Shown: in pieces, positions 1 through 50,566 of the stretch
How the letters are laid out: each line of letters opens with the position of its first letter
How positions within the stretch are numbered: position 1 is the first letter of the stretch
Source: Nanobdellota archaeon
GTDB lineage: Archaea > Nanobdellota > Nanobdellia > Pacearchaeales > GW2011-AR1
Direction of reading: 5' to 3'
DNA length: 64,000 bases
Assembly: GCA_020430505.1 (NCBI GenBank)
Contig: JAGQJT010000001.1
Coordinates: 7,629-71,628, forward strand
Notes under the pieces: model-generated
What the model was told of the DNA's origin: nothing
Database searches by the model: none
Seen by the model: only the letters and a program-made list of their open reading frames with translations
Made by a program: the position numbers and the translations under genes

Positions 1-647
1 AATAAAACTTTCTTAAGAGATTTTTCTTTACCCTTCAAAACAAGTTTGACTTGAGATATAGACTGAAAAGACATCAAAGCAAATAAAATAACCCCGAAAG
101 GAAGTAAAATATTCTTTGAATTAAACGTTAAAAGATTAGATAATTGGATCTTCCCTACAAATACTACAAGAATGGCTACCAAAAGAGAAAGGATTATTAT
201 CACGCCCATTTTCTCAAATTTTTTCAATGAATTCAACCCTCCTTTAATTAAAAAGGACATAAAAATTCCAAACAAAACACCAAATAACAATTCATATGAA
301 AAATTTCCAAATGCTAAAAAACTAATACTTCTGCCAATTCCCAACATATATGCAACAAGAGCAGCATAGATTCCAAAAACAGTTGCAAATTCCATTACGT
401 GTTTGCCAGATTTGCCAAGATATTTTTTAGCATAACCAATCAATTGGTGATCTCCTTTTGTCCTAAGCGCAACTTCTCCAAGATATAAATTAACCAAAAG
501 AATAATTCCTCCAATAAAGAACAAATAAACCAAGGCTAAAAAAAAACCAGATTGCGCAGCAACATAGGGGATTCCCAAAACTCCTGCACCTATACAAGTT
601 CCAACTAACACTGAAACTGCTGAATAAAATTTACTATCAAACCCCAT
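1..647 (-). CDS. amino acid permease (Trp/Tyr-permease-like transporter family), C-terminal part outside window
   Basis: Absent from the ORF track because it runs off the window. My reverse translation from CAT 645-647 gives MGFDSKFYSAVSVLVGTCIGAGVLGIPYVAAQSGFFLALVYLFFIGG..., multi-TM with the GAGVLGIP-type motif. Confidence 0.7.
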   Translation of the reverse strand, partial: MGFDSKFYSAVSVLVGTCIGAGVLGIPYVAAQSGFFLALVYLFFIGGIILLVNLYLGEVALRTKGDHQLIGYAKKYLGKSGKHVMEFATVFGIYAALVAYMLGIGRSISFLAFGNFSYELLFGVLFGIFMSFLIKGGLNSLKKFEKMGVIIILSLLVAILVVFVGKIQLSNLLTFNSKNILLPFGVILFALMSFQSISQVKLVLKGKEKSLKKVL

Positions 648-657
648 TTTATTAAAA

Positions 658-729
658 CAGGCCGGGAGGGAATCGAACCCCCATCATCAGGGCCGAAACC
701 TGATGTCCTATCCGTTGAACGACCGGCCT
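658..729 (-). tRNA. tRNA-Arg (anticodon UCG)
   Basis: Manual cloverleaf: acceptor AGGCCGG/CCGGCCT, D stem GTTC/GGAC, anticodon stem TCAGG/CCTGA, loop TTTCGGC, T arm GGGGG-TTCGATT-CCCTC. Ends +/-2 nt. Confidence 0.85.
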
Positions 730-750
730 AATACAGACAAATTAAAACAA

Positions 751-758
751 TTTATATA
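751..758. promoter_or_regulatory. TATA-like box (TTTATATA) 22 nt upstream of tRNA-Arg(UCG); possibly bidirectional with the protease gene
   Basis: AT palindrome-like TATA at the spacing seen for the other tRNAs here. The only candidate promoter between the divergent tRNA and protease genes. Confidence 0.4.
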
Positions 759-12299: not shown

Positions 12300-12869
12300 T
12301 TATTTTAGAATTTCTTCAAGAAGATCGGGAAATTCATTTGTTCCCATATCCCCAAAAACAAAATGGCCTTTGTTTTTCATTTCGATTAATTTCCCCTTCA
12401 AAGACTCTTCAAATATTTTAGCACTCTTTTTTCCATCCTCATCTTCATCATCAGATGTAAAAATAAGTACTTTTTTCACATTATCTTTAATTGCAGGGAA
12501 AATCTCAAAATCATAAAGTTCATTCTCCCCCTTCGTAAATTCATCACTCCTAATTTTCCAAGGAGCAACCAAGATCAATTTTTTAATTTTTTTACGTGTA
12601 TCTCCAAGCCATCTAACTAAAAAAGCACATCCACAACTATGGCCTACTAAAACAGTTTCTTTACCAATATTCAGCCCATCAAAAATATTTTTCCAATCTT
12701 CATATTTTGGATTCCAAGGCTCGGGCATCAAAGGAGTTTCACAAGCAATCCCTTTGTCAATTAATTTTTCTTTAAGCCAATATAACCAATGTTTATTATA
12801 AGTTCTAGTCTCGGGGGTTTTTTCTTTTTCTTCATTTCCTGGGCAACCGTGAACAATTACAACATTCAT
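12300..12869 (-). CDS. alpha/beta serine hydrolase (RBBP9/YdeN-like family), paralog 1
   Basis: 189 aa. VVIVHGCPGN, nucleophile elbow VGHSCG, C-terminal GHF. The start ATG overlaps the leuS stop (ATGA at 12866-12869). Confidence 0.7.
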   Translation of the reverse strand: MNVVIVHGCPGNEEKEKTPETRTYNKHWLYWLKEKLIDKGIACETPLMPEPWNPKYEDWKNIFDGLNIGKETVLVGHSCGCAFLVRWLGDTRKKIKKLILVAPWKIRSDEFTKGENELYDFEIFPAIKDNVKKVLIFTSDDEDEDGKKSAKIFEESLKGKLIEMKNKGHFVFGDMGTNEFPDLLEEILK

Positions 12870-15304
12870 TCTAAATAAAAACCAGGCATTCCAGGTCTAG
12901 CCCTCTTAGATTTATTTTGGAGATCTATTTTATTGGGGTCTGCAACAGAGAAAACTTTAGCCTTCAAACCCAACTTATCCTCGAGAAATTTTGGATTAAT
13001 TTTATCTAATTCAAAAGGGACTGTATAAATATAAACCATTTTATAATCTCCTTTTGAAACATGAGGATTTATCAAATCAAAAATTTTCGCGTTCAAATCA
13101 ACTTCCTTCTTTTTTATTTTCAATTTTTTAGAATCAAAATCAGGCCATTCATTAATAGAAAGAAATTCCTTTTCTCCCAGTTTGCTCCAAAGTTCTTCTG
13201 TAATGTGCGGGCAAATTGGATTCAAAAGTTTCAAAGCCTTTCCAAAAGTTTCTTTAGAGATTTCCTTTTCTTCAAAAATCATATCGAATAATTCTCTTAA
13301 TTCAATGGTCGCTTTTCTATACTCAAAAGTCTCATAGTAATTTGAAACATTCTTTATTGTATTATTCAACTTAACTTCTAATTTTTCAGAATCCTTTCCA
13401 AATTTCAAATTTGAAAAATCATTAAAAACCCTATTCAAAAATCTTGAACTTCCAGAAATTCCTTTTTCAGACCAATTAAAATCTTTATCTGGAGATGCAA
13501 CTGAAACTAAAAAGAATCTCAAAGTGTCGACTCCATATTCTTTAGAGGTATCTAAAGGATCAACAGTATTTCCAAGAGACTTAGACATCTTTTCTCCATC
13601 TTCTCCATAAATAAATCCTTGATGAAACAATTTATTAAAAGGTTCTCTAAAATTAATTAATTTCATATCTGCCAAGAATTTAGTATAAAATCTGGAATAG
13701 ATTAAATGCATGCAGGCATGCTCTGAACCTCCAACATAATAATCCACAGGACACCAATCTTTTACATTATTCTTATTAAAAATTTCTTTTGAATTCTGAG
13801 GGTCACAATATCTCATGAAGTACCAGGAAGAATTAACAAAAGTATCCATTGTATCTGTCTCTCTTCTTCCTTCTCCTTTACACTTGGGACATTTTGTTTT
13901 AATCCAAGATTCGTTTGTCTCAAGAGGATTTCCTTCACCAAATTTTACTTTGTCTGGAAGTTCAACAGGCAAATCTTTTTCCTTTACAGGAACGATTCCA
14001 CACTTCCCACAATGAATAATTGGAATTGGTGTTCCCCAATACCTCTGTCTTGATATTCCCCAATCTCTCAATCTAAATTGGGTAACTCTTTTACCAAGCT
14101 TATTCTTTATCAACCAATCAGTTATCTTTTTCTTAGCCTCTTCATTTTTCAATCCATTAAAACCAGGAGAATTGACTAAATTGCCCCAATCGGTGTAAGC
14201 TCTTTTCCAGTCATGATCTTTAGGACAACCAATAACTTGTTTAATTTCAATATTGTATTTTTTTGCAAATTCAAAATCTCTTTGATCATGTGCAGGCACA
14301 GCCATAACCATTCCCCCAGCATAATCTGCAACAACAAAGTTACCAGCATAGATTGGAATTTTTTCTTCATTAATTGGGTTTATAGCGTAACTTCCTGTAA
14401 AGACTCCTTCCTTCTCCATATCCGCCAAATCTTTCTCAGAAACAGATTTCAACTTTTTCAAAAATTTTTCAACATCTTTCTTTTGAGAATCAGTTACTAA
14501 ATCCCATAATTTTTTATGCTGAGCTGAAATAACCATAAAAGTAACACCAAACAAAGTATCTGGCCTTGTCGTAAAGATATTCCAATATTTTCCATTTATT
14601 TCAAACTTTATCTCAGTTCCGTGAGATTTTCCAATCCAATTTTTTTGCATTGCTTTTGTCCTCTCAGGCCAATCTTTCAAATTATCAATTCCTTCATATA
14701 ACTCATCCGCATAATCTGTGATTTTCAAAAACCATTGTTTCAAAAATTTAGTTTCAACTTTTGACCCACACCTGTCACAATTTCCAGTCTGCGCTTGCTC
14801 ATTTGCTAAAACCGTTTCACAAGAAGGGCACCAATTAACATTTGATTCTTTTTGATAAGCCAATCCTTTTTCAAACATTTTTAAGAAAATCCATTGATCC
14901 CATCTGTAATAACTAGAATCTGCGCTTGAAATCATTCTCGACCAATCATAACTAAATCCAAGAGTTTTCTGTTGATTAATGAAATTTTTTATTGATTCTG
15001 CTGTATAATTCTTAGGATGAATTCCATCTTTTATTGCAGCATTTTCTGCAGGTAACCCTAAAGAGTCATATCCCATTGGGTGAAGAACATTAAACCCTTT
15101 CAATCTTTTGTATCTTGCGAGAATATCTCCTATTAAAAAATTCCAAGCATGCCCTATATGCAAGCCTTTTCCAGAAGGATAAGGAAACATTTCCAAAACA
15201 TAACATCTCTCAAATTTGGCTATATCCCTTGCCTCAAAAATTTTAGCTTCTTCCCATTTCTTCTGCCATTTTTTTTCAATCTTTCCGAAATCAATATCAC
15301 TCAT
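12866..15304 (-). CDS. leuS: leucyl-tRNA synthetase, bacterial-type
   Basis: Start trimmed to MSDIDFGKIEKKWQKKW (ATG 15304). MFPYPSGKGLHIGHAWNF, HPMGYDSLGLPAEN (bacterial-type signature), KMSKSLGN. Confidence 0.9.
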   Translation of the reverse strand: MSDIDFGKIEKKWQKKWEEAKIFEARDIAKFERCYVLEMFPYPSGKGLHIGHAWNFLIGDILARYKRLKGFNVLHPMGYDSLGLPAENAAIKDGIHPKNYTAESIKNFINQQKTLGFSYDWSRMISSADSSYYRWDQWIFLKMFEKGLAYQKESNVNWCPSCETVLANEQAQTGNCDRCGSKVETKFLKQWFLKITDYADELYEGIDNLKDWPERTKAMQKNWIGKSHGTEIKFEINGKYWNIFTTRPDTLFGVTFMVISAQHKKLWDLVTDSQKKDVEKFLKKLKSVSEKDLADMEKEGVFTGSYAINPINEEKIPIYAGNFVVADYAGGMVMAVPAHDQRDFEFAKKYNIEIKQVIGCPKDHDWKRAYTDWGNLVNSPGFNGLKNEEAKKKITDWLIKNKLGKRVTQFRLRDWGISRQRYWGTPIPIIHCGKCGIVPVKEKDLPVELPDKVKFGEGNPLETNESWIKTKCPKCKGEGRRETDTMDTFVNSSWYFMRYCDPQNSKEIFNKNNVKDWCPVDYYVGGSEHACMHLIYSRFYTKFLADMKLINFREPFNKLFHQGFIYGEDGEKMSKSLGNTVDPLDTSKEYGVDTLRFFLVSVASPDKDFNWSEKGISGSSRFLNRVFNDFSNLKFGKDSEKLEVKLNNTIKNVSNYYETFEYRKATIELRELFDMIFEEKEISKETFGKALKLLNPICPHITEELWSKLGEKEFLSINEWPDFDSKKLKIKKKEVDLNAKIFDLINPHVSKGDYKMVYIYTVPFELDKINPKFLEDKLGLKAKVFSVADPNKIDLQNKSKRARPGMPGFYLE

Positions 15305-15355
15305 TAAAAAATCAAGATAAAGAAGTTTTAAAAGTTGTTGTTGATTAATAAATAC

Positions 15356-15874
15356 ATGGAAAAAATACAGACTCATTTAATCGGAAAAACTTTGACTTCA
15401 AACTCTAAATCAGCTTACCAAATGTCAAAAAAAAGCTATTTTGGAGAAAAAGTAGGGGAGAAAATCCAGTATATGCCTACAGAAGCATTTTATTTATTTG
15501 AAAAAAATCAACTTGAAATCTTTCAAAAGAGCAAAAAACTTCCCAATGAGGAAATTGTAAAAAAACTTCAAAAAATAGACAAGAAATTCCAAGAAAAATA
15601 CATCGTTTTCAAAGATTTAAGAAAGAAAGGGTACATTGTAAAAACGGCTTTAAAATTCGGAGCAGAGTTCAGAGTTTATTCTAAAGGAAAAAAACCAGGT
15701 CAAGAACACGCAAAATGGCTAGTAATCACCGAAAAGGAATCAAACAAAATAAACTGGCATGAATTCTCTTCTAAAAACCGTGTCGCGCATTCAACAAAAA
15801 AGAACTTACTTTTAGGATTAATTGATGAAGAAGGAAAAGTCATTTATTATGAGATTTCCTGGATTAAGCCTTAA
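15356..15874 (+). CDS. endA: tRNA-splicing endonuclease (short homotetramer-type subunit)
   Basis: The ORF track start is TTG, so I use ATG 15356. KKGYIVKTALKFGAEFRVYSKG...HAKWLV catalytic-domain pattern. Confidence 0.8.
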   Translation: MEKIQTHLIGKTLTSNSKSAYQMSKKSYFGEKVGEKIQYMPTEAFYLFEKNQLEIFQKSKKLPNEEIVKKLQKIDKKFQEKYIVFKDLRKKGYIVKTALKFGAEFRVYSKGKKPGQEHAKWLVITEKESNKINWHEFSSKNRVAHSTKKNLLLGLIDEEGKVIYYEISWIKP

Positions 15875-17535: not shown

Positions 17536-17609
17536 GGCTCCATAGCTCAGTTGTTTAGAGCGCTGCTCTCATGAGGCAGAGGTCCTGAGTTAGAATCTCA
17601 GTGGAGCCA
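17536..17609 (+). tRNA. tRNA-Met/Ile2 (anticodon CAU), elongator-type
   Basis: Acceptor GGCTCCA/TGGAGCC, anticodon stem CTGCT/GGCAG, loop CTCATGA. No initiator features (G1-C72, no GGG/CCC stem). Confidence 0.85.
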
Positions 17610-17954
17610 TTAATTCAGTTTAACTCCATCATCTTTCTTTCTAGGAATAATGTGAAAATGCAAATGTGGAACTAACTGCCCCGAATCAGGAAAGTTATTC
17701 TGAACAATGTTGAAACCTGTCGCACCAACTTCTTTCATGACCTTTAATGAAACTTCTTTTATTGTGGAAATTAATTCAGGACCCATACTAATAGGAAAAT
17801 CCAAAATGGTTTCAAAATGTTTTTTGGAGATAACTAATGCATGTCCTTCAGAAATTGGATGAATGTCTTTTATTGCAAAAAAGTTATCGTCTTCAAAAAC
17901 CTTTTTAGAAGAGATCTCCCCATTTGCAATCTTACAAAAAACACATTCACTCAT
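17610..17954 (-). CDS. HIT family (histidine triad) nucleotide hydrolase
   Basis: 114 aa. CVFCKI...PISEGHALVISKKH...PHLHFHIIPR. Confidence 0.85.
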   Translation of the reverse strand: MSECVFCKIANGEISSKKVFEDDNFFAIKDIHPISEGHALVISKKHFETILDFPISMGPELISTIKEVSLKVMKEVGATGFNIVQNNFPDSGQLVPHLHFHIIPRKKDDGVKLN

Positions 17955-20680: not shown

Positions 20681-21235
20681 TCATTTTATAAAATCTAAAA
20701 TTTCCAAGATTTCAGAGACATTATTGAAATGCTCAAGATTTTTCTTTATCAAAATTTTCGAATTAAGTTTTTCTTTAAACTTTTCTGCTTCGTCTAAGTG
20801 CACATAAGGATCATTTGTGGAAAAAATTGAGAAGAAATTATTACAATGGTCCAAAACTCTCTCAAAATGAATTTTCTCTTTTATCCAAGGATGAGCAATT
20901 TCAATTTCTTCTGGCTCCAAATTAATTAAATCGAACCAACCTGCAATAAAAACACAACCTGCAATTCTCTTGTGTTTGTGAAGTTTTTCTAGATACCTCA
21001 TTATTGTTTGGCATCCAATACTATGTCCCACAAAGTAAGTCCTTTCATCAACAGATTCAATATTTTCTTCTAAATATTTCACCCAATCTTCAATTCTGGG
21101 AGATTCAGTATCAGGCATATCAAAACTTTCCACTTCAAATCCTTTTTTTGGAAGTTCTTCCTTGAGCCAGTCGAACCATCCTCCAGATCCAGTTCCGCTC
21201 CATCCGTGTATTAAGTAAACTTTTCCTTTTGTCAT
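20681..21235 (-). CDS. alpha/beta serine hydrolase (RBBP9/YdeN-like family), paralog 2
   Basis: Trimmed to MTKGKVYLIHGWSG (ATG 21235) because the ORF extension runs through tRNA-Cys. VGHSIG nucleophile elbow. Confidence 0.7.
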   Translation of the reverse strand: MTKGKVYLIHGWSGTGSGGWFDWLKEELPKKGFEVESFDMPDTESPRIEDWVKYLEENIESVDERTYFVGHSIGCQTIMRYLEKLHKHKRIAGCVFIAGWFDLINLEPEEIEIAHPWIKEKIHFERVLDHCNNFFSIFSTNDPYVHLDEAEKFKEKLNSKILIKKNLEHFNNVSEILEILDFIK

Positions 21236-21244
21236 TTTATGAAA

Positions 21245-21318
21245 AGCGGAGGACGGGACTCGAACCCGTGAATATCTGCTCTGCAGGCAGACGCAGTAGC
21301 CGCTGTGCCACCTCCGCA
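21245..21318 (-). tRNA. tRNA-Cys (anticodon GCA)
   Basis: Acceptor GCGGAGG/CCTCCGC, anticodon stem TCTGC/GCAGA, loop CTGCAGA, T arm ACGGG-TTCGAGT-CCCGT. Confidence 0.85.
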
Positions 21319-21342
21319 TTAAAATTAAGGAAATAAGAATCT

Positions 21343-21351
21343 ATTTAAAAC
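21343..21351. promoter_or_regulatory. TATA-like box (TATTTAAAA) shared by the divergent tRNA-Cys (25 nt away) and the EamA gene (25 nt to ATG)
   Basis: The only AT-box in the 57-bp divergent gap, at correct spacing for both sides. Confidence 0.4.
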
Positions 21352-21375: not shown

Positions 21376-22263
21376 ATGGTGGAGTGGTATGTTTTGTCTT
21401 TAATCTCTGCAGTTTTCTCAGCAGGAGCCGCAATTTCCCAAAAGAAAATTCTCTTCAAAGAATCAGCACTAGGATTTTCATTACTAGTGGCATTGTTTAA
21501 TTTAATCTTAGCGATACCTTTCTTTTTCTTCGTTGAGTACACTACACTAACAACCTCGGGAATATTAGTTTTATTCTTAAAATCCACATTAGGAGCAATT
21601 GCATTCTTATTTGTAATGCTTGGAATAAAAAATTTAGAAATAAGTGAAGCCTTGCCTCTTTTAGTTTTGGCACCTGGATTGGTTGCAATATTTGCATTCA
21701 TTTTCTTAGGAGAAAACATAAACAAAATAGAAATCTTAGGATTAATTCTTTTGATAATTGGAACATACCTTCTATCCTTAAAAGAAAAACAAAAAATAAA
21801 AACTCCTTTCAAAAAAGCCTTCAGTAAAAAAGGCCATTATTACATAATATTCGCTTTGATTATTTTTACCATAACTTCAATCTTAGATAAAGCAGTTTTG
21901 AACAAATTCAAAATTCCTCTAAACGCATTTATGGGTCTTCAGCATCTTTTCTTCGCAATAGTTTTCATAGGATTACTCTTTGTCACAGGAAAGAAAATTG
22001 AATTTAAATCTGCACTAAAAAATTCATGGGCATGGATTGCATTGGTTGCACTTTTTACAATTACCTATAGGTACACCCATCTTTTGGCAATAAAGAGCAC
22101 TTCAGTTGCGTTGGCCTTGTCAATAAAAAGGATTTCGGTATTTCTCGCAGTTGCCGTGGGAGGTGCATTGTTCAAAGACAAGAATCTCATAAGAAAAATA
22201 ATTGCAACGGTCATAATAATTGCAGGAGCATTATTGATAATCAACGGGCAAAACTGGTTATAA
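21376..22263 (+). CDS. EamA/DMT-superfamily transporter
   Basis: 295 aa, about 10 TM, two-fold internal EamA-like repeat pattern. Confidence 0.75.
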   Translation: MVEWYVLSLISAVFSAGAAISQKKILFKESALGFSLLVALFNLILAIPFFFFVEYTTLTTSGILVLFLKSTLGAIAFLFVMLGIKNLEISEALPLLVLAPGLVAIFAFIFLGENINKIEILGLILLIIGTYLLSLKEKQKIKTPFKKAFSKKGHYYIIFALIIFTITSILDKAVLNKFKIPLNAFMGLQHLFFAIVFIGLLFVTGKKIEFKSALKNSWAWIALVALFTITYRYTHLLAIKSTSVALALSIKRISVFLAVAVGGALFKDKNLIRKIIATVIIIAGALLIINGQNWL

Positions 22264-23077: not shown

Positions 23078-23085
23078 ATTAAAAA

Positions 23086-23160
23086 TGCCCCCGACAGGAT
23101 TTGAACCTGCGACCTACTGCTTAGAAGGCAGTCGCTCTATCCAGGCTGAGCTACAGGAGC
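23086..23160 (-). tRNA. tRNA-Arg (anticodon UCU)
   Basis: Acceptor GCTCCTG/CGGGGGC (2 G-U pairs), anticodon stem ACTGC/GCAGT, loop CTTCTAA, T arm GCAGG-TTCAAAT-CCTGT. Confidence 0.85.
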
Positions 23161-23183: not shown

Positions 23184-23193
23184 TATTTAAAAA
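23184..23193 (-). promoter_or_regulatory. TATA-like box (TTTTTAAATA on minus strand) 24 nt upstream of tRNA-Arg(UCU)
   Basis: Lies in the 39-bp gap between the rnz stop and the tRNA. Confidence 0.4.
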
Positions 23194-23199
23194 GTTTGT

Positions 23200-24108
23200 T
23201 TAAACCTGCACCCAGTACAAATCATCAATCAAAGAGGATTTTTTGAATATTTTTGTAGCTTCTTTCAAAACAGGTTCTGTATTTTTTTCATACCTCTGAG
23301 AAATGTGAGTCAAAATTAATCTCTTAACATCTGCACGTTTTGCAATTTCAGCAGCCTGCCCAGAAGTCAAATGATATCTTCCTCTAGCAAGCTCTTCTTT
23401 TCCATGTTCAAAGGTGGCTTCGCAAACAAGAACATCAGCATTCTTAACAAAAGGAACAATATTTTTATTCAATTTAGTATCTAAAACAAAAGAAACTTTT
23501 TTGCCTTCCTCCTCAAAAGTCAAATCCTTAGATTCGTATTTCTTTCCCTTGAAAACAACATCTTTTCCTTGTTTCAATTTTTGCAGCAAAGGTCCAGGGG
23601 GCAAACCTGAAGATTTCAATTTCTTCTTATCAACTCTTCTTTCTCCCTTTTGGATGAATGAATATGCATTACAAGGCACGTTGTGAAACATTTTTCTTGC
23701 CTCAATGTAAAAATCACCATTCTCAAAAAAAACTCCTTCTTTAGTAACCTCAACTACCTTTATAGGAAACTTGTTTACAAAAGCAAAAGTCTTAAACATA
23801 TTTGCAAGATATTTCTTAGTTCCTTTTGGACCATAAATTGTCAAACCTTTTTGATATTCACTAAAAGCTAAAGTTTGCATCAACCCAGGTAACCCCAAAA
23901 CGTGATCTCCATGCCAATGCGTAATCAAGATTTTTGTAAGTTTGCAAGGATTTAACTTCGCTTTTCTAAACTGTCTTTGAGTTCCTTCGCCACAGTCTAT
24001 CAAAATATTTTCTCCACCATAAGTTAAGAGAATACTCGTGTGATTTCTATCTGCAGTTGGAATCGCACCAGAGGTTCCCAAAAAGAATAGTTTTATTTTC
24101 TCTGCCAT
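23200..24108 (-). CDS. rnz: ribonuclease Z (tRNA 3' endonuclease)
   Basis: 302 aa. FLGTSGAIPT, metallo-beta-lactamase motif ITHWHGDH, C-terminal LILTHIS. Confidence 0.9.
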   Translation of the reverse strand: MAEKIKLFFLGTSGAIPTADRNHTSILLTYGGENILIDCGEGTQRQFRKAKLNPCKLTKILITHWHGDHVLGLPGLMQTLAFSEYQKGLTIYGPKGTKKYLANMFKTFAFVNKFPIKVVEVTKEGVFFENGDFYIEARKMFHNVPCNAYSFIQKGERRVDKKKLKSSGLPPGPLLQKLKQGKDVVFKGKKYESKDLTFEEEGKKVSFVLDTKLNKNIVPFVKNADVLVCEATFEHGKEELARGRYHLTSGQAAEIAKRADVKRLILTHISQRYEKNTEPVLKEATKIFKKSSLIDDLYWVQV

Positions 24109-28245: not shown

Positions 28246-31200
28246 TCATCCTTTACTAGCTCTATTTGGCTTATTCTGTTCAAACCATTGATAAACTGCA
28301 TCTTGAGTTTCTTGATTAATTCCCTGTCTTGAAAAAAATTCATTAAGAGTAATGACTTCATAACCAAGATCCACATAGTGATAAACATCTTGAAAATCAA
28401 TCTTCAAATCATTTGGATTTACATAAAAACTAGAGGAATCTCCAAAACCTTGCTGAAAAGATTCTGAAGAAGTAGGAAGAGTCCCATCTTGCCATTTCCA
28501 ACCAGCTAATTCATAAAACTGCATTAGCTTATCATATTCCTCTTGAGTATAAACATTAACAGCCACATTATCCATAGCAGTTAAAGTAAAACTAACATCT
28601 GGAATTGTACTTCCAGAACCACTTACAGCACCCTTAGAAATTAAATAATCAATTACTTCTTGATTTTCTTCTTCAATTGCATAATCCAATGCAGTTTTGC
28701 CTTCATTATCTACGGCATTTACATTCGCACCACTTTCTACAAGGTATTTAACAATCTCGAAATAGTCCAAATAAACAGCTGTAATTAAAGAATTCCTTCC
28801 CTTATAATCATCCTCTCTCTTTGCTTCAATATCTGCACCATTCTCCACCAAAATTTTTACAGTATTCAAAGAATTTTGATCAACAGCCCAAAGTAAAGGA
28901 GTAAAACCATTCTTATTGGTGGTCTCTATATTAGCACCTTTTTCAAGAAGGTATTCAACAATTTCCCAATTATCATATAAGCTAGCCAAATGTAAGGGTT
29001 TTAGCCCCCCTCCATCACCAGAGCATTCTGAATCCACTGAAACTCCTTGCATAACCAAAGACTTAACTAAATTTAGGTTTCCTTCTATGGAAGCATCACA
29101 TAATTGATCAACCTTTGAACCAGAATTTCCTCCAATCCCATTCGCTTTGTTTTCTTCCAACATTTGTTTAACATCAGTAGGAATATCGTTCTCCCTATTA
29201 AACCATCCAAAAAAAGCCCCTTCCCCTTTAACATCAGAACATTGATCCTCTGTCAACAAATCTTGATTACAAATTTCGTCTATAAAATCTGTGTTGACTG
29301 CAGAATCAGAGTAAGTCCCTTGCAATTGACCTGCTCTCTTTATTGCAGAATCATAATTCCACACTGTAACTAAAGGTTGATACTCATGCCCTTCTTCAAG
29401 ATAAGAAATAAGTTCTGGAACAATATCCTCTCCATTACGTCCTTTTGACTTAAGTTCATTATACTTTGATACTTCAAGAAGGCCATCTGTTCTCAATTTC
29501 TCAAGCCCAAAATTTAAATCCCCTGATTTCGCTCTTTCTAAATCAAAATAATTTCCTTCTCCAATTAGTTCTGCTTTCAAGATTGCCGAAGGCACACCCC
29601 ATTTACCTGCATTAACTTCATTATATCTTACAATCAACATTTCCTTAACATCATCAAAATTATTTGCTCCATTTGCCAATTTTTCAAAAAAGTTTGAACC
29701 TCCTTTAACATCTATACACTGTGCTTCCGTCAAAATATATTCACTAGAACTCACAACAGAAGACCTGCAAATTTCATCAATAATCTCTTTATTTTGAGGT
29801 CTATCCTCGTCAGTATATTTCCCACTTAAAGGTCTGATCTGTTCTATTGCAGTTTCAATAGTCAAATCCTTAAAATAGTTCTCTCCTTCATAAACATTAG
29901 GAAGGCCTTCTAGATTTAAAGAAAATAAATATTTTGCACCCTTCACAAAGTCAAAATTATCATCTTTAATTTTCTTGATTGCCGCCTTCTCCCTTGCAGT
30001 AAACTTTGGATTATTATCTAAGGTATCTTCATTTCTTAAAGAAGAGTAATATTTATCTCCAGACCTTTTAAATACCCATTCATCCTCGACAAATTCAAAA
30101 GAGACTTTTTTATAATTGCTAAATCCACCTACCTCAAAAACTTTTTTATCATCCATTCTCGTACTCTGAGAATCTAGATTATTTCCCAATTCTACAGCTT
30201 TATTTATCAAAAGAGATAAACCCTCATCATAATTTTTGTCTTGTAATTCAAGAATTATTTTTGAATATTTGTCTCTAGGAGTTTTTCTTCCATAACTATC
30301 TTCAAAAGTTTTCGTATCCACCCATTCAACAGTAATATACTCATTAACCAATCCAGAACCAGAAACATCTAAATCAAGAGTTGTGCCAACAACATCACAA
30401 TTCATTGACCAATGCCATTCATTATTAAAAAATTTGAAACACATGTTCCTCATTTGAATCTTTGAAGAGGTACTAGGATCAACAACATTGTCCAAAGCCT
30501 CATTCAAATCTTCTGTTTCTTGAGCGACTTGTTCTTCCCCATTAATATCTACGCCATCTCCTATAGGCTCCCAATACATATAAACTGGGTGAGAATTGTC
30601 TCCAAGATTAAGAGTAAATTTTCCAAAGATCCTATTTCCTTTTTCATCATGCTGGTTCCAATCAAAGACTTCTGCAACATAATTTTCTTCGTCAATCCAT
30701 TTAAGAAAGATTATATTATGAGGAGTCTTATAATCTAAAGCAATAGATAGGATATCTCCTTCTTTTAATGCTCCCAACTTTTCAGAAGCAGAAAGATCCA
30801 AAGTAGATTTTTGCTTATTTAAAGTACAACTCTTCATAGGTTGATCATTGGCTTGAAAGATAATTGCACCATAAGCATTTTCAGTTTCACTTATTTTGAT
30901 AATATTTCCTGAAAGAGAATAAGATTTTCCTTTACCATCAGAATAAACACAATTTTTGTCCACATTTGCATATTGATAAATTGCTAAAACAGAATCATGA
31001 CAAGTAATCACACCACTATTATCACAATCCCCAATCTCAGCCTTATCGACAATTCTTCCATTAAAATATTCTACAGCAGCCAAAACTCTCTCACGAGGAT
31101 TAGAATTACCCAAAATTTCTTTTTTCTTTTCCTCTTTTTCCTTAGCAGCCGCAGCTTCTCTCTCTGCCTTTTGTTGCGCTAAAACTTTCTGGTATTCATT

Positions 31201-34200
31201 AAAAGATCCCTTAGTCAAGTCTCTATAAGCATTTCCTCGGAGATAATATAAATAAGCCTTTTGTGAGTTAAAAAACATCTTTCCAACAATTGAATCAATA
31301 AAATTTATTCTCTTGATAGGGTTAGATTCTAGTTTCAATGTTTCAACAGCTTCTTTAAATTGCCCCTCTCCAAAGTAATCAGTATTGTTAGGATTATTTT
31401 CTAAATTATCTTGGAAGTATTTTTCTAATTCACTTAAAGTTTGACCTTCTGTGTAGTTAAAAACAACTGCATCACCCACACTACTTTTATCTAACCAACA
31501 TCTTATTTCAGTGTCACCACAATATCCCACATCCACCCACCTTTCAGGATTGGAACCAGAACCAGGATTATTTGAAGCGCAAATTCTTTGAATCCCTTGG
31601 TTGTAAATCTTTGGATCAATCAAATCACTCGCAGTTTCTTCAAGATTCGGATTCAATAGATTGTAGAAACTAGCTGTTCCAGAAATACAAGCCTTTTGTG
31701 TCTTTATGTCCGTTTGAGTTGCTTGTTGCTTTACATATTGATCTTGAACATAATCTATAGCAAAACTTGTTGAGACTTCTTGGAAACCACATTCCTCTTG
31801 ATCATTTACTCTTATACACAACTCTTTAAATCCTGAAGGTGCAGTAAAATCAACTGTTTGAGTTTCATAATCTCCTTTAGGGATATAACCCGAATCAACA
31901 TTTCTTACATTACCGAAAAGAACCCCATCTTGATAATAAGAAGACTGTGAGCTTTCTCTTAAATAAACTTTATAATATGCCCCCCTATCATTTCCAGCAT
32001 AAATATGGTAAAAAACCTTGTAATGAGAACTTGGAGGATTAGTAACAGTACTATAGGGAATTTCTTCAAATTTGCCTGTGAATTGAGGAGGTGAATCTGG
32101 CTCTGTTAGAGAATCTAGAATACTAACTCCTCCAGGATAAGTTGCGGAAATAAAAGTTTTACAAGCCGCAGTTCCAACCTCTTCAGAGCTTCTTGCTTTA
32201 AATGCCTTGTATGAATCAGCTGCATAATACTGTGTAAAATAAGAGACAGAGTCTTGTGCATTTTGCCAAGCAGATTGAACCCCCAAATATTCTCCTCCAC
32301 CATGAGAATTTTGACCTAGTACAGTGCTTAAAATTTTTGGGACCGCCAAATTTGCTAAAGGCAATGCTTGTCTCCAAAAAAACTCGCACATATATACACT
32401 ATGAATCTCATCACATATTCCAACAGTTTCCCCAGTTTCCAGATTAGTTTGCAAACAATCTCTGTAAGAATCCATAACAGAAACCCACCCATCTAAACCT
32501 GCTTTAACCCCACTTAAACAAACAGGGACATAAATCCCTTCTTTAGCGTTTGGCAAACATAAAGCAACACTTCCAACGATTCCCGTTTGTATAACATCTT
32601 TGACGGGATAAGCTCCTCCAAAATCACATCTACTTGAAGGACAAATTACAGGATCACAAACATTAAATAAAACTTTACAATCTGAAGGAGACATAAAGTC
32701 AGTACACTCTACAGAGGGCACATTTGTAGCAGGACTTCCAACTCCAACAATCCCTCCATCTGGAAGAGTAATTCTTTTAACCCCAGACTTATACTGTCTT
32801 GATGCAGCTTCTATAGCACTAACTGCTTTGTTAACCAATCTAGAAGATTCAGATTCAGTCAACCCAGGAAATTGATTATAAGGCTGCCCAGTTCCCAAGT
32901 TCACTAATTCACAGACATCATCTTTTTGATTTGAATTAAATTCTTCATAGCCATTTGGACCAACATTACAAAGCCAGAAACTATTGATTCTTCCTGAAAC
33001 ATCATAACTATTTATTCCTCCCAAAACTGCAACTTTCTGCTGCACATAAGCATACCATCCATTATCTTTATCAAAAGGCACAACTGCAGGCAATCCTTGG
33101 TAAGGCTCTTCTTCATAATATCTCACAATAACATCTTTTTCTCCTGGAGAAGGATTAAACTTATTGTTATAACTAGTGGAATCTAAAACTCTGAAATCAA
33201 TCTTAAGTAATTTATCTAACCTCGTTTTATCGGTAACCCTAGTTCCAGTAAAGTCATAAATCAAGTAAGAAGAAGTGCCATCATTTTCTATATGTTGTTT
33301 AATTGGATAAACGCCTGTTTTTATAGAATCATCCAAAATGAACAAGAAAAATCCATCACTTGTTTGAATTCCTTGAACCGGAGTCGATAAAGGAAGATTA
33401 TATTCATTATCAATAACCGAACTCCATTTATCAAGAGTATTTCCCTTATAATATTCTTGAATTCTTCCTTCTTCTGTTGTTACATAAGAAAAATCAGAAG
33501 CAGAGATTCCTGTTCCTTGAAGAGCATCATTTATTTGAAGGAAACTATCGGAATTTTCTTTCAATCTAGAAGACAAATCATAAAGTTTTTTCAGATATTT
33601 TTCATCTCCGGTTTGCTGATATAATCTATAGTAAAGGTCAAAATTTTTCAAATCTTCCAAATTGTAATACCCCTTGTTAAAAGAGTCTTCTCCAGAAAAA
33701 ATTGTTGACATATCGGAAGTCAGAACATACTGGCTAGAATCATCCGGATTTTGAATTGAACCAATATTAACATTGGAAATAACTGACTGGGCATATTCGC
33801 CCACAAAACTTTCTGTGTCAACAACATTATCTCCAAATATTTTTAGTTGATTCGGAATAAGATGTTTATCTTGAATATTTTTTATGTTCTCATTTTGAGA
33901 TTTTATCGTCTGGTAAACAGAATTCACTTCCTTGTTTATTGTGTCTGCGTTCTGGAAATAACAATTTTCTTGTGAAGCATAATTACCTGCAGAAACCTCA
34001 CCAGCACAATGTTCTGTCCATCCTCCACTACTCCTCATAACCATTTGTCTTGCAATTGATTTCCCATCAGCATTTTGGATAAAATTCTTTACAGTTAATG
34101 CTGCGCCAACTCCTAAACAAGCCGCTTTCATATCCTTAACAACAACACCTAAATTATCTGAAAACTTCTTCCAATCTTCAACTTGCTTATTTAATTTCTC

Positions 34201-36423
34201 AACAAGACTTTCTACCTTTTCAGGAGCTAATTGAATTGCTCTCTTTTCAATACCAATGTTAAAATTAAAATCAGAATAAGACCTTTGATATTTTTGTTCA
34301 GGGATAATTGAAATTTTTGCTTGTTTTTTAAGATTTATTTTGGTTACTTTTATCACGACATTATCTCCTAGAGTCTTAGGATCATTTAAATTAAAATTTC
34401 TTTCTATGCTTACAAACCTATTGTAAAAGGAATCGTTAGCTACATAGACCTTTAAAGTTGCAGAATCAATATCCAAACCAGTAAGTTCTATGTATTCCCC
34501 AGAAGAGATGTTAATTGTTCGCCTTTCATCTTTGTCCAAATTAAATGAGGTTGTAGTTCCATCAGAAAATTTAACCAATACAGAAACCCCATAATCTTCA
34601 AAAGAAGGTTCATCAATCTTAACAAGAGAAATACTATGCAACTCCCCGTCTATCAAAACATCATATTTTGAATTTGAAGAGCTATAGAAAGAAACATCTT
34701 TTTCACATCCAACCGAATCCACTAATTCGGGATATAATTCTTTAAACTCGCTACAAATTTCAAGAACCTCAAAAGATTGACCAAGGAATTTAGCCAAATC
34801 AATTTTTTCCTTAAAAGATTCAAGAGACAATTCCTGACTTTCATAAGTTTCGTCAGGATAGTCTTCAATAACTCTTTCATAGCTTTGCTTGGATTCTCCA
34901 TAATATTCCGAAGTATTTATATTCAAATCCAAAGTGTCCCCAATTCCAAGTCCATTAAGAATTATAATGTGATCTTTAATTTCATTTAAAGAGCTACTTT
35001 CTCCGACGACGATCTTGATTACATCATCGCCAGTTCTTATTCCTTCTTCAATATCTAAAATATCCCCCTTAAGAGTTCCAAAATCTTCTTCAAAACTTTC
35101 AACAAGAGTCAATCCCTTATCAGTAGCCCTATCTTTGTAATTGGCCATTTTTTCAAGATAATCATATTGGGATTCACTAATGACCTCTCCAACTTTCTCA
35201 GGAGTTAAGTAAATATACGCCTGAAGATCCTTGGGATTATTTGAAGAACCAGAAAACTTTGCATACCCTAAGTACATGTGCTTTCCCTCATCTTCAGAAT
35301 ACCCAAGATAATCTCCTACATGATAGTTCTCTTGTTGATCATCAATAGTTAAATTTACTTGAGGAGAAATGAATAGAGTTTTCATGGCATCTGATTCCCA
35401 AAAAGTAGAGTCATCCTCCTTGCAATAAACTTCAACTCTTTGATTTATTCCATCTTTTCCGATACTATTCTTAACAATATGGCATCTATTATCTAAAAAT
35501 TTATCTCCCTCTTGAAGAGTGTAATATTCTGAATCAACTTTCAAAACAGCTCTTGTGTCGGGATTAACAAGCTCATCCAATTTTATTTGCAAACCCGCAA
35601 AACAATAAAGCCCAGGCAAGTAAACAACACTTGAAGAAGCTCCCTCCGCCAATCTGAAGGAACCATATTTTCTTTTCTCATCAGTACGTCCTTCAAAAGA
35701 ACCTCTATAAACATCTGAATAAACAACTATTGTTGCAGAATTACTATCTACTCCTTCAACAGCCAAATAGCCTCTTCCATCCCAAAAACTATATTGATTC
35801 TTAATCTTGTCCCACTCAGAATAAGACATTTCTGGAATGAAAAAAGTATTCTCTCCAATTCCAAAAGAATTTTGGATATCATACCTTATTGTAGCATTAA
35901 TAGTTCCCTTAACAAAATCTGGCATTGAACTTTCATTTTGATTTTGTCTTAACATTACAACAGCATAACCAATATTTTCATAAGTAGGATTTTCAACTTT
36001 ATCTGAACTTCCATAAAATCCAAGAAATTGTGAAGATAAAGCTGCTTTGTTTGGGATAAATCCGATTGTACGGACTTCTCTAGGATAATTTCCTCCAAAA
36101 GTTATTGAATCTATTTGAGAAACATCAATAAAAGGATTAATTTTAGTGGCTCTTATAGGACAAAAAACAGGAACATCCTGTTCTTCTAACAAATCACTTC
36201 TAACTGGAACAGGAGAGCATCCTGTAGCATCTATTTGAAGAAGAAAATCCTGACTTTGTTCACACATACTTGTATCCCACTCCAAGCTAGGAGAACCAAA
36301 AGAGCTATATGTTCCCCCATAGTAATATTTAGGGTTTGAAGCAGAATAACTTGCAGCTAGGGAGACCAATGAAAAGAAAACTCCCAACAAAATCAAAAAT
36401 AGAATCAAATTATTTTTTTTCAT
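28246..36423 (-). CDS. giant secreted surface protein (2,725 aa) with Cys-rich core and C-terminal ankyrin repeats
   Basis: One uninterrupted 8.2-kb ORF. Sec-type signal MKKNNLILFLILLGVFFSLVSLAAS. Ankyrin repeats at 28627-29112. Most of the length is unassignable by eye. Confidence 0.9.
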   Translation of the reverse strand: MKKNNLILFLILLGVFFSLVSLAASYSASNPKYYYGGTYSSFGSPSLEWDTSMCEQSQDFLLQIDATGCSPVPVRSDLLEEQDVPVFCPIRATKINPFIDVSQIDSITFGGNYPREVRTIGFIPNKAALSSQFLGFYGSSDKVENPTYENIGYAVVMLRQNQNESSMPDFVKGTINATIRYDIQNSFGIGENTFFIPEMSYSEWDKIKNQYSFWDGRGYLAVEGVDSNSATIVVYSDVYRGSFEGRTDEKRKYGSFRLAEGASSSVVYLPGLYCFAGLQIKLDELVNPDTRAVLKVDSEYYTLQEGDKFLDNRCHIVKNSIGKDGINQRVEVYCKEDDSTFWESDAMKTLFISPQVNLTIDDQQENYHVGDYLGYSEDEGKHMYLGYAKFSGSSNNPKDLQAYIYLTPEKVGEVISESQYDYLEKMANYKDRATDKGLTLVESFEEDFGTLKGDILDIEEGIRTGDDVIKIVVGESSSLNEIKDHIIILNGLGIGDTLDLNINTSEYYGESKQSYERVIEDYPDETYESQELSLESFKEKIDLAKFLGQSFEVLEICSEFKELYPELVDSVGCEKDVSFYSSSNSKYDVLIDGELHSISLVKIDEPSFEDYGVSVLVKFSDGTTTSFNLDKDERRTINISSGEYIELTGLDIDSATLKVYVANDSFYNRFVSIERNFNLNDPKTLGDNVVIKVTKINLKKQAKISIIPEQKYQRSYSDFNFNIGIEKRAIQLAPEKVESLVEKLNKQVEDWKKFSDNLGVVVKDMKAACLGVGAALTVKNFIQNADGKSIARQMVMRSSGGWTEHCAGEVSAGNYASQENCYFQNADTINKEVNSVYQTIKSQNENIKNIQDKHLIPNQLKIFGDNVVDTESFVGEYAQSVISNVNIGSIQNPDDSSQYVLTSDMSTIFSGEDSFNKGYYNLEDLKNFDLYYRLYQQTGDEKYLKKLYDLSSRLKENSDSFLQINDALQGTGISASDFSYVTTEEGRIQEYYKGNTLDKWSSVIDNEYNLPLSTPVQGIQTSDGFFLFILDDSIKTGVYPIKQHIENDGTSSYLIYDFTGTRVTDKTRLDKLLKIDFRVLDSTSYNNKFNPSPGEKDVIVRYYEEEPYQGLPAVVPFDKDNGWYAYVQQKVAVLGGINSYDVSGRINSFWLCNVGPNGYEEFNSNQKDDVCELVNLGTGQPYNQFPGLTESESSRLVNKAVSAIEAASRQYKSGVKRITLPDGGIVGVGSPATNVPSVECTDFMSPSDCKVLFNVCDPVICPSSRCDFGGAYPVKDVIQTGIVGSVALCLPNAKEGIYVPVCLSGVKAGLDGWVSVMDSYRDCLQTNLETGETVGICDEIHSVYMCEFFWRQALPLANLAVPKILSTVLGQNSHGGGEYLGVQSAWQNAQDSVSYFTQYYAADSYKAFKARSSEEVGTAACKTFISATYPGGVSILDSLTEPDSPPQFTGKFEEIPYSTVTNPPSSHYKVFYHIYAGNDRGAYYKVYLRESSQSSYYQDGVLFGNVRNVDSGYIPKGDYETQTVDFTAPSGFKELCIRVNDQEECGFQEVSTSFAIDYVQDQYVKQQATQTDIKTQKACISGTASFYNLLNPNLEETASDLIDPKIYNQGIQRICASNNPGSGSNPERWVDVGYCGDTEIRCWLDKSSVGDAVVFNYTEGQTLSELEKYFQDNLENNPNNTDYFGEGQFKEAVETLKLESNPIKRINFIDSIVGKMFFNSQKAYLYYLRGNAYRDLTKGSFNEYQKVLAQQKAEREAAAAKEKEEKKKEILGNSNPRERVLAAVEYFNGRIVDKAEIGDCDNSGVITCHDSVLAIYQYANVDKNCVYSDGKGKSYSLSGNIIKISETENAYGAIIFQANDQPMKSCTLNKQKSTLDLSASEKLGALKEGDILSIALDYKTPHNIIFLKWIDEENYVAEVFDWNQHDEKGNRIFGKFTLNLGDNSHPVYMYWEPIGDGVDINGEEQVAQETEDLNEALDNVVDPSTSSKIQMRNMCFKFFNNEWHWSMNCDVVGTTLDLDVSGSGLVNEYITVEWVDTKTFEDSYGRKTPRDKYSKIILELQDKNYDEGLSLLINKAVELGNNLDSQSTRMDDKKVFEVGGFSNYKKVSFEFVEDEWVFKRSGDKYYSSLRNEDTLDNNPKFTAREKAAIKKIKDDNFDFVKGAKYLFSLNLEGLPNVYEGENYFKDLTIETAIEQIRPLSGKYTDEDRPQNKEIIDEICRSSVVSSSEYILTEAQCIDVKGGSNFFEKLANGANNFDDVKEMLIVRYNEVNAGKWGVPSAILKAELIGEGNYFDLERAKSGDLNFGLEKLRTDGLLEVSKYNELKSKGRNGEDIVPELISYLEEGHEYQPLVTVWNYDSAIKRAGQLQGTYSDSAVNTDFIDEICNQDLLTEDQCSDVKGEGAFFGWFNRENDIPTDVKQMLEENKANGIGGNSGSKVDQLCDASIEGNLNLVKSLVMQGVSVDSECSGDGGGLKPLHLASLYDNWEIVEYLLEKGANIETTNKNGFTPLLWAVDQNSLNTVKILVENGADIEAKREDDYKGRNSLITAVYLDYFEIVKYLVESGANVNAVDNEGKTALDYAIEEENQEVIDYLISKGAVSGSGSTIPDVSFTLTAMDNVAVNVYTQEEYDKLMQFYELAGWKWQDGTLPTSSESFQQGFGDSSSFYVNPNDLKIDFQDVYHYVDLGYEVITLNEFFSRQGINQETQDAVYQWFEQNKPNRASKG
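28627..29112 (-). other. ankyrin-repeat region (about 4 repeats) of the giant protein
   Basis: GLKPLHLASLYDNWEIVEYLLEKGANIETTNKNGFTPLLWAV...VKILVENGADIEAK...VKYLVESGANVNAVDNEGKTALDYA. Confidence 0.85.
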
Positions 36424-50493: not shown

Positions 50494-50566
50494 TAGCCCT
50501 GCCAGGATTCGAACCTGGGTCCCTGCCTCCAAAGGGCAGTATACTTGACCACTGTACTACAGGGCT
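50494..50566 (-). tRNA. tRNA-Gln (anticodon UUG)
   Basis: Acceptor AGCCCTG/CAGGGCT, anticodon stem CTGCC/GGCAG, loop CTTTGGA, T arm CCAGG-TTCGAAT-CCTGG. Confidence 0.88.

Follow-up and report, generated by a model that had tools for sequence, protein, structure and literature searches.

tRNA genes followed after 8–11 nucleotides by reading frames in a nanoarchaeal contig, and a proposed tRNA-mRNA transcription unit

Four tRNA genes and the reading frames behind them

The window analysed here is a stretch of 64,000 nucleotides (nt) from a metagenome contig of a Nanobdellota archaeon (contig JAGQJT010000001.1 of assembly GCA_020430505.1, positions 7,629 to 71,628), in which four tRNA genes on the minus strand, tRNA-Arg(UCG), tRNA-Cys, tRNA-Arg(UCU) and tRNA-Gln, are followed by the ATG of an open reading frame (ORF) after 10, 9, 8 and 11 nt, respectively. 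The window encodes archaeal markers (ribosomal proteins S8e and S17e, LSM and a tRNA-splicing endonuclease), and the nearest genomes are metagenome-assembled genomes of Pacearchaeota and Woesearchaeota (given in some records as Nanoarchaeota), whose RNase Z is 52–72% identical to that of the window. Because the organism is archaeal, sigma-70 promoter and terminator scanning was set aside; upstream architecture was read from the 60 nt before every window gene, which were listed.

ARAGORN and Rfam agree on eight tRNA genes in the window. Mature ends were set by alignment to the Rfam tRNA model (RF00005); ARAGORN adds 1 flanking nt at some termini relative to Rfam. With these ends, CCA is encoded by none of the eight tRNAs. 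A TATA-like box lies upstream of all eight, ending 21–25 nt before position 1 (e.g., TATATAAA, TTTTAAAT and TTTTTATA), and a promoter is predicted in front of each. The box TATATAAA (751–758) is the sole promoter-like element upstream of the amino-acid permease gene that follows tRNA-Arg(UCG). The features of the four junctions are collected in Table 1.

Table 1. Features of the four tRNA-ORF junctions and the RNase Z gene (window coordinates)
Feature	Position	Strand	Evidence or remark
TATA box of tRNA-Arg(UCG), TATATAAA	751..758	-	sequence; ends 21 nt before position 1
tRNA-Arg(UCG), 72 nt, discriminator G658	658..729	-	Rfam RF00005, 58.4 bits; ARAGORN; cloverleaf on folding
Spacer after tRNA-Arg(UCG), 10 nt, UUUUAAUAAA	648..657	-	U-run, then A-rich start-codon context
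Trp/Tyr-type amino-acid permease, N-terminal 215 codons in window	1..647	-	Pfam PF03222 (Trp_Tyr_perm), 3e-19
TATA box of tRNA-Cys, TTTTAAAT	21343..21350	-	sequence; ends 25 nt before position 1
tRNA-Cys(GCA)	21245..21317	-	ARAGORN, Rfam
Spacer after tRNA-Cys, 9 nt, UUUCAUAAA	21236..21244	-	sequence
Serine hydrolase (Ser_hydrolase), 184 aa	20681..21235	-	Pfam PF06821, 3e-25, from residue 7
Short-form RNase Z, 302 aa	23200..24108	-	Pfam Lactamase_B_2, Lactamase_B_4
TATA box of tRNA-Arg(UCU), TTTTAAAT	23185..23192	-	in 39-nt gap after RNase Z stop codon
tRNA-Arg(UCU)	23086..23160	-	ARAGORN, Rfam
Spacer after tRNA-Arg(UCU), 8 nt, UUUUUAAU	23078..23085	-	sequence
Fe-hydrogenase large-subunit-C-like protein (Fe_hyd_lg_C), 278 aa	22241..23077	-	Pfam PF02906, 1e-41, from residue 14
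TATA box of tRNA-Gln, ATTATAAA	50590..50597	-	sequence
tRNA-Gln(UUG)	50494..50566	-	ARAGORN, Rfam
Spacer after tRNA-Gln, 11 nt, CUUUAAAUAAA	50483..50493	-	also fits lineage TATA consensus cTTTAAATA
Orphan ORF after tRNA-Gln, 62 aa	50294..50482	-	no Pfam match

Behind the discriminator base the spacers read TTTTAATAAA-ATG(647) after tRNA-Arg(UCG), TTTCATAAA-ATG(21235) after tRNA-Cys, TTTTTAAT-ATG(23077) after tRNA-Arg(UCU) and CTTTAAATAAA-ATG(50482) after tRNA-Gln. The U-runs measure, in the same order, 4, 3 (4 with the discriminator U), 5 and 3 nt, and none of the four junctions has a Shine–Dalgarno (SD) motif. In particular, the spacer between tRNA-Arg(UCG) and the permease gene holds no SD motif and is too short for a promoter; its U-run would serve as RNase Z trailer and partial terminator. 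A preliminary description of this DNA, made at positions 645–758, from the permease ATG (645–647) through the TATA box of the tRNA (751–758), had given the spacers as 8–11 nt and placed TATA-like boxes upstream of the tRNAs and an RNase Z gene at 23200–24108. The spacers and their sequences are exactly as given there, the boxes are found ending 21–25 nt before position 1, and the RNase Z matches the Bacillus subtilis and Escherichia coli RNase Z structures (PDB 1y44 and 2cbn) over its full length, with E about 1e-52. The endonuclease for a cut after the discriminator base and its CCA-less tRNA substrates are thus both encoded in the window, and we infer that this RNase Z is the enzyme cutting the tRNA-mRNA junctions.

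Three of the four downstream ORFs (permease, serine hydrolase and Fe_hyd_lg_C) are genuine genes, and their start codons are placed correctly: the matches to Pfam begin at residues 6, 7 and 14, each at profile position 2–4 (for the permease, residue 6 at position 4), which leaves no space for a start codon further downstream. The full permease has 374 amino acids (aa) on the source contig (L106 7138–8262), the public gene call uses the same ATG, and tblastn matches in relatives begin at residues 1–10, mostly 4–6. The next gene downstream of the permease has its own TATA box, ending 21 nt before its ATG, so that the transcription unit would comprise the tRNA and the permease. Likewise, tRNA-Cys and the serine hydrolase gene have a divergent neighbour on the tRNA side and a convergent one on the hydrolase side, and would therefore form an isolated two-gene unit. 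The tRNA-Arg(UCU)-Fe_hyd_lg_C junction occurs also in one relative (L011), with a spacer of 6 nt. The 62-aa ORF behind tRNA-Gln has no Pfam match, and among 5.8 billion proteins its sole match is itself. The pattern reported for four of the eight tRNAs is thus solid at three junctions, with a doubtful orphan ORF at the fourth.

Several details of annotation and packing were seen around these genes. For the serine hydrolase, the mechanical ORF and the public gene call (20681–21319 in the window; L001 4622–5260) extend through tRNA-Cys, which stays open in the hydrolase frame and begins beside an ATG; the resulting 212 aa, in place of the correct 184 aa, are an annotation artefact of a kind that is likely to be common at such junctions. 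A second Ser_hydrolase paralogue of 189 aa (12300–12869) overlaps by 4 nt the end of a gene for an 836-aa class I aminoacyl-tRNA synthetase (12866–15376; Pfam tRNA-synt_1), so that one family is both operon-internal and tRNA-led in one genome. The Fe-hydrogenase-like gene (minus strand) and a convergent EamA transporter gene (plus strand, 21376–22263) share 23 nt at their 3′ ends (22241–22263). The last base of tRNA-Met, 17609 (window 17536–17612), abuts the stop codon of a convergent HIT-family gene (17610–17954, minus strand), with zero intergenic nt between them.

Promoter spacing and the content of the spacers

Most window genes carry a B recognition element (BRE)/TATA element, with the consensus cTTTAWATA, about 20–23 nt before the ATG; in the minority that follow closely on another gene, its place is taken by a GGAGG-type SD motif or by a stretch rich in A. 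For comparison, 80 species-representative Pacearchaeota and Woesearchaeota loci (about 1.06 Mb; L004–L083) were scanned with ARAGORN together with the window; the 3′ ends of the tRNAs were re-anchored on the T-loop, and the distance was taken to the first ATG-starting ORF of at least 60 aa with a positive coding score. A 10-nt TATA weight matrix trained on window genes was dropped (null 95th percentile of 5.5 versus a tRNA median of 4.3, in sequence of 31% G+C) and replaced by positional histograms of TATA-like hexamers. Before 635 ATG-starting genes of the window and the related loci, the hexamers form a sharp peak ending 21–23 nt before the ATG, and before the 187 tRNAs a peak ending 24–25 nt before position 1. 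A hexamer ending 20–28 nt before position 1 is present for 127 of the 177 tRNAs that do not lie within 30 nt behind another tRNA. In Methanocaldococcus jannaschii the distance from TATA box to transcription start is 23±2 nt (PMC2699501). By this spacing, the mRNAs of the lineage are probably predominantly leaderless, and tRNA transcripts would start at or within a few nt of the mature 5′ end.

Neither of the two common architectures applies to the four genes behind tRNAs. Same-strand spacers that bear a promoter begin at about 30–34 nt in the lineage, and the region 23–30 nt before each of the four ATGs is the G+C-rich T-arm and acceptor stem of the tRNA. A primary leaderless mRNA would have its TATA box about 23 nt before the start codon; here that site falls inside the tRNA, and the AAA start context differs from that of promoter-bearing genes. 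Nor is there a GGAGG-like motif 4–15 nt upstream, as in SD-led genes inside operons. These distances indicate too little room for a promoter of their own, in accordance with the earlier statement that a separate promoter would have no space outside the tRNA.

A cryptic promoter and start could lie inside the tRNA body, or the AT-rich spacer could act as a TATA box for a true start codon further downstream. In favour of such a promoter are the composition of the spacers, which is TATA-like, and CTTTAAATAAA after tRNA-Gln, which fits the consensus cTTTAAATA found before many genes of the lineage. Were the spacer a TATA box, however, transcription would begin about 23 nt inside the ORF, yet the Pfam domains start at residues 6–14, the permease N-terminus is conserved in protein from residues 4–6 in the majority of relatives, and no in-frame ATG of the hydrolase lies near the start so predicted. 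As for the tRNA body, positions −23 to −30 belong to the T-arm and acceptor stem, whose G+C-rich sequence is conserved for tRNA function, and the SD motifs that relatives have in the short spacers of their permease loci also argue against a cryptic promoter. We regard a cryptic promoter or start as very improbable.

The TATA box of tRNA-Arg(UCG) has a second neighbour. Read on the plus strand, positions 751–758 are TTTATATA, located 28 nt before the ATG (787) of a divergent gene for a trypsin-like protease of 283 aa, whose start at 787 is also that of the public gene call. This near-palindromic box may serve the tRNA and the protease alike.

The bases next to the start codon differ between classes of genes. 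Positions −3 to −1 are A in 80–88% of tRNA-led genes and in 72–89% of genes that lie 3–16 nt behind another gene, compared with 27–48% of promoter-bearing genes (p = 1.7e-6), whose upstream sequence stays untranscribed. Where a transcript cannot begin at the start codon, AAA stands at −3 to −1. An SD-like motif is present for 43 of 111 operon-internal genes versus 2 of the 25 tRNA-led genes (p = 0.002), where both motifs fall within the acceptor stem; among promoter-bearing genes the count is 9 of 121. The spacer thus looks transcribed, and its AAA start context looks selected. The term 'almost leaderless' in the preliminary description suits the predicted leader length and no more than that, since the start context resembles that of operon-internal starts, not of primary leaderless mRNAs.

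The U-run is the other element of the spacer. Of 187 tRNAs, 174 have T as their first trailer base regardless of what lies behind them, and this T may be a determinant for RNase Z or for termination. The T-run behind the discriminator is longer when a gene follows (mean 3.3 versus 2.2 nt, p = 0.001), and runs of U4 or longer are found at 10 of 25 led junctions (40%) versus 27 of 160 other tRNAs (17%; p = 0.013), reaching U7 at junctions in relatives. In Methanococcus maripaludis, median termination is 30% with no U4 tract, 43% with one and 52–55% with at least two. The factor aCPSF1, which acts in termination, binds U4 but does not bind U3, and downstream genes are tuned by partial terminators within operons (PMC8716108, PMC10450193). 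In M. jannaschii, TBP and TFB bind tRNA promoters more tightly than protein-gene promoters (PMC2699501). By analogy with these two species, one short U-run placed between a housekeeping enzyme gene and the strong tRNA promoter upstream is plausible as an attenuator. The leaky terminator first offered as an alternative to co-transcription, to which the significantly longer U-runs of led junctions give weight, would thus complement co-transcription and is no alternative to it.

Conservation and geometry of the junctions in relatives

The pairing of tRNA-Arg(UCG) with the permease can be followed through 21 metagenome loci with permeases of 61–70% aa identity and upstream sequence present, 18 of which have tRNA-Arg(UCG) directly upstream. 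In 14 of the 18 the spacer is about 10–26 nt (e.g., TTTTTAAAAA-ATG, TTTTCAAAACAG-ATG and CTTTACTTAAAGAAAG-ATG). Several of the short spacers (12–26 nt) contain an SD motif (AGGAG, GGTGA or GAGG), as in TTAGGAGTTGAA-GTG, TAAAAAGGTGATAAG-GTG, TAAAAAAGAGGAT-ATG and ...CGGGGGAGAAAAAAGAG-ATG. Within a spacer of 12–26 nt after a tRNA, an SD motif can serve only in an RNA whose start lies upstream of it, which argues that the spacer is transcribed. Four loci have spacers of 64–214 nt, at least one of them with a recognisable TATA box of its own, so that the arrangement can revert. By this comparison, the tRNA-Arg(UCG)-permease junction appears to be old. Co-transcription of tRNA and mRNA, the earlier reading of the pattern, is well supported by sequence and comparison, through the lack of room for a promoter, the conserved permease pairing, the SD motifs of the relatives and the AAA context.

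How often a tRNA is followed so closely by a coding sequence (CDS) depends on the class of junction that is counted. Spacers of 3–16 nt are found in 25 of 176 tRNA-then-CDS pairs (14.2%) versus 18 of 751 CDS-then-CDS pairs (2.4%; Fisher p = 5e-9), and in 21 of 168 versus 15 of 685 when the window is left out (p = 1.8e-7). For all promoterless junctions (−20 to +16 nt), the frequencies are 25 of 176 (14.2%) and 111 of 751 (14.8%; Fisher p = 0.9). The preliminary description had proposed that adjacency should exceed what gene density predicts; in raw frequency it does not, and the excess is confined to the class of 3–16 nt. The rate in the window itself, 4 of 8 or 3 of 8 tRNAs, is only mildly above the 12.5% of the relatives (p = 0.011 or 0.067).

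The geometry is more particular than the frequency. Spacers after tRNAs have a median of 10 nt, with 18 of 25 at 7–11 nt, none at 0–2 nt and few at 17–30 nt, before a second class begins at 34 nt, a length that can hold a promoter. Pairs of protein genes have their clusters elsewhere, at −4, 0 to +2 and 30–34 nt. The orientation is one-sided: against 25 tRNA-then-CDS junctions, 0 of 187 tRNAs lie 30 nt or less downstream of a same-strand protein gene (sign test 6e-8). What is distinctive is therefore the length, composition and orientation of the spacer, with an overall adjacency that is not above ordinary operon frequency.

The led genes span at least ten unrelated families: the permease, Ser_hydrolase, Fe_hyd_lg_C, DUF362-ferredoxin, low-molecular-weight (LMW) phosphatase, UPF0047/YjbQ, NUDIX, EamA, class II aminoacyl-tRNA synthetase and DUF3850/ASCH. 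In most of them the Pfam domain begins in the first few residues (in two families further in, at residue 21 or about 40). One family may stand behind several tRNAs (Ser_hydrolase behind Cys, Leu and Arg; DUF362 behind Leu and Arg; LMWPc behind Arg and Glu), and tRNA-Cys alone leads at least seven different genes.

These counts bear on two further explanations. Under neutral compaction, the U-run would be a real tRNA terminator, the led genes would be decaying or living on incidental read-through, and the spacer would reflect AT-richness plus the trailer. The led genes, however, are intact conserved enzymes and transporters, the permease junction is kept across loci at 61–70% aa identity, the spacers are held tightly at 7–11 nt, unlike those between protein genes, the AAA start context is selected, and SD motifs have evolved in the spacers of relatives. 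Neutral compaction draws on the equal frequency of promoterless junctions after tRNAs and after protein genes, on the first trailer base, which is T in 174 of 187 tRNAs irrespective of what follows, on gene packing as tight as that of the stop codon abutting tRNA-Met at 17610, and on the orphan among the four led ORFs. On balance we find it unlikely.

Transfer RNA genes are common integration sites, and the led genes could be cassettes inserted at tRNA 3′ ends by site-specific recombination. Such an origin would suit the families that stand behind different tRNAs (Ser_hydrolase behind Cys, Leu and Arg, DUF362 behind Leu and Arg, LMW phosphatase behind Arg and Glu). No further copy of any of the four tRNA 3′ ends (14–22 nt, at most 2 mismatches) is present in the window, however, so that att-like repeats are lacking; no integrase domain turned up in the neighbouring genes that were scanned against Pfam, and each unit consists of a single housekeeping-type gene. 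We give cassette insertion a very slim chance, and it concerns the origin of the junctions, not their expression, and is compatible with co-transcription.

Some tRNAs also stand in series. Ten of the 187 follow another tRNA within 30 nt; in relatives, tandem tRNA-Arg(UCU)-tRNA-Cys pairs lie 1–22 nt apart (e.g., in L008, L035, L061 and L077), and some loci have three-gene units of tRNA-Arg, tRNA-Cys and a CDS. In six loci (L009, L012, L025, L043, L045 and L054) ARAGORN reports 'tRNA-???' genes of 91–95 nt, probably intron-containing tRNAs, at sites that tRNA-Arg(UCU), tRNA-Cys or tRNA-Leu occupies in other relatives. The tRNA-splicing endonuclease of the window is encoded at 15335–15874. The termination factor aCPSF1 was also sought in the window, where the 618-aa ORF at 36420–38276 has no Pfam match. 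This ORF precedes a giant ORF of 2,725 aa (28246–36423, minus strand) and overlaps it by 4 nt, with an SD-like GAGGT about 10 nt upstream of the ATG of the giant ORF.

A proposed tRNA-mRNA unit and its precedents

The geometry of the junctions, the absence of a promoter and of an SD motif, the conserved arrangement and the stereotyped spacer are observed directly in the sequence. We consider it probable that each of the three solid junctions, and possibly the fourth, is a two-gene tRNA-mRNA unit that is cut by RNase Z and partially terminated at the U-run. The BRE/TATA element of the tRNA would be the sole promoter of the unit. RNA polymerase would start at or a few nt from tRNA position 1 and transcribe the CCA-less tRNA; part of the transcription probably ends at the U-run (U3–U5 in the window), and the remainder would read into the protein gene. 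Enzymes of the RNase Z family leave a 3′-OH on the tRNA and a 5′-phosphate on the trailer. The RNase Z cut after the discriminator, needed for maturation of the tRNA, would also free the mRNA, with a 5′-monophosphate, a leader of 7–11 nt of the form U(n)AAA-AUG and no SD motif. For the tRNA-Arg(UCG)-permease RNA, a cut after G658 would release 5′-P-UUUUAAUAAAAUG... The strong tRNA promoter would thereby feed the promoterless gene at a reduced level, and the ribosome would start either in a leaderless-like manner on the cut mRNA or internally on the uncut RNA by way of the A-rich context.

Several points weigh against this proposal. Read-through, cleavage of the two-gene RNA by RNase Z, partial termination and translation of the freed mRNA are what we infer from sequence. 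A tRNA is no likelier than a protein gene to precede a promoterless gene (14.2% versus 14.8%), and a promoterless gene after a tRNA may be no more than an ordinary operon of a compact genome; the 80 loci of relatives behind these frequencies are one syntenic region around the RNase Z gene, with four dominant tRNA species, and not a genome-wide sample. The AAA context is the same as that of SD-less operon-internal starts, so that translation could equally occur on the uncut RNA. A run of U4–U7 directly after the tRNA could end most transcription and leave the downstream gene nearly silent, and an mRNA with a 5′-monophosphate may be unstable. The 62-aa ORF behind tRNA-Gln is doubtful as a gene. 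Folding of the tRNA-spacer-mRNA junction recovers the cloverleaf with the spacer unpaired and nothing notable overall (z = −1.28). A weak G-U-rich hairpin over the AUG in this fold is not significant at that z value.

Joint transcription and a 5′ end made by RNase Z both have precedents. In Thermococcus kodakarensis, differential RNA-seq places tRNA-Lys (TKt3) within the 159-nt 5′ untranslated region (UTR) of TK0306 (PMC4247193). There, as is proposed here, one primary start in front of an archaeal tRNA serves both the tRNA and the protein gene behind it. TK0306 is, however, the only case reported there, its UTR is long, and the mRNAs of T. kodakarensis mostly have leaders and use SD motifs, whereas the present arrangement recurs (about 13% of the sampled tRNAs in relatives), with SD-less spacers of 7–11 nt in a lineage whose promoters mostly stand at leaderless distance. 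Nanoarchaeum equitans is grouped with Pacearchaeota in the GTDB phylum Nanoarchaeota. In this species an RNase Z cut was proposed from RNA-seq for a joint precursor of a tRNA and a C/D small RNA (sRNA), a downstream 5′ end made by RNase Z having first been described for plant tRNA-snoRNA genes (PMC3491384). There, too, a tRNA promoter would drive a second RNA directly downstream, and the RNase Z cut would make its 5′ end, but the partner is a small non-coding RNA, whereas here it is a protein-coding mRNA that needs translation.

The preliminary description had likened the junctions to mitochondrial tRNA punctuation, reportedly described by Ojala, Montoya and Attardi in 1981. The likeness would hold for tRNA excision that sets the 5′ end of an mRNA with little or no leader and no SD motif. 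Mitochondria, by contrast, transcribe whole strands from very few promoters and have tRNAs on both sides of genes, whereas here each tRNA has its own promoter, none of 187 closely follows a protein gene, and a TATA box at −22 precedes most protein genes; the comparison is therefore a loose one. A bacterial tRNA-mRNA operon is thrU-tyrU-glyT-thrT-tufB of E. coli. It too has the tRNAs promoter-proximal and the protein gene promoter-distal, but the leader of tufB is an ordinary one that includes an SD motif, and processing is by RNase E, RNase P and exonucleases, compared with no SD motif, no CCA and a predicted RNase Z cut at the junction here. The partial terminators inside M. maripaludis operons (ioTTS) place a short U-tract between co-transcribed genes and lower downstream expression (PMC10450193, PMC8716108). 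These lie between protein genes and were shown experimentally, whereas the U-run here lies between tRNA and mRNA and its function is read solely from its greater length. The searchable literature, which leaves subscription journals outside its coverage, holds no description of the pattern for DPANN archaea and no relevant transcription-start or tRNA-mRNA study of DPANN archaea or Pacearchaeota. What differs from these precedents is the lineage-wide recurrence, the SD-less spacer of U-run and AAA, the promoters at leaderless distance and the tRNA that always comes first.

A wider reading, which we hold tentatively and at somewhat less than an even chance, is that tRNA genes of Pacearchaeota and related DPANN archaea routinely act as promoter-and-processing modules for promoterless protein genes. 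They would give rise to a class of mRNAs made by RNase Z, with a 5′-monophosphate, no SD motif, a leader of 7–11 nt and attenuation at the U-tract, as a third regular route to archaeal mRNA beside leaderless and SD-led ones, and the tRNA would come first as a rule because its 5′ end comes from initiation and not from RNase P. The fixed distance between TATA box and tRNA in the lineage recalls the fixed-distance promoters of N. equitans, which is free of RNase P. Despite this fixed distance, the tandem tRNA pairs 1–22 nt apart in relatives imply that some 5′ processing is needed.

To specialists in RNA processing the mechanism would be unsurprising; its regularity, one-sided orientation and stereotyped spacer lend themselves to direct testing. 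With the rule in hand, start sites and operons would be predicted better in metagenome-assembled DPANN genomes, as the hydrolase miscalled at 212 aa illustrates, and the U-run with its AAA spacer offers a compact, testable design for tRNA-mRNA expression cassettes. If the proposal is true, a streamlined archaeal genome expresses genes without individual promoters, by borrowing a strong and precisely placed tRNA promoter together with an obligatory RNase Z cut. A class of processed mRNAs with a 5′-monophosphate and a short leader would then be added to archaeal translation initiation, and the dosage of some tRNAs would be tied to that of particular enzymes and transporters.

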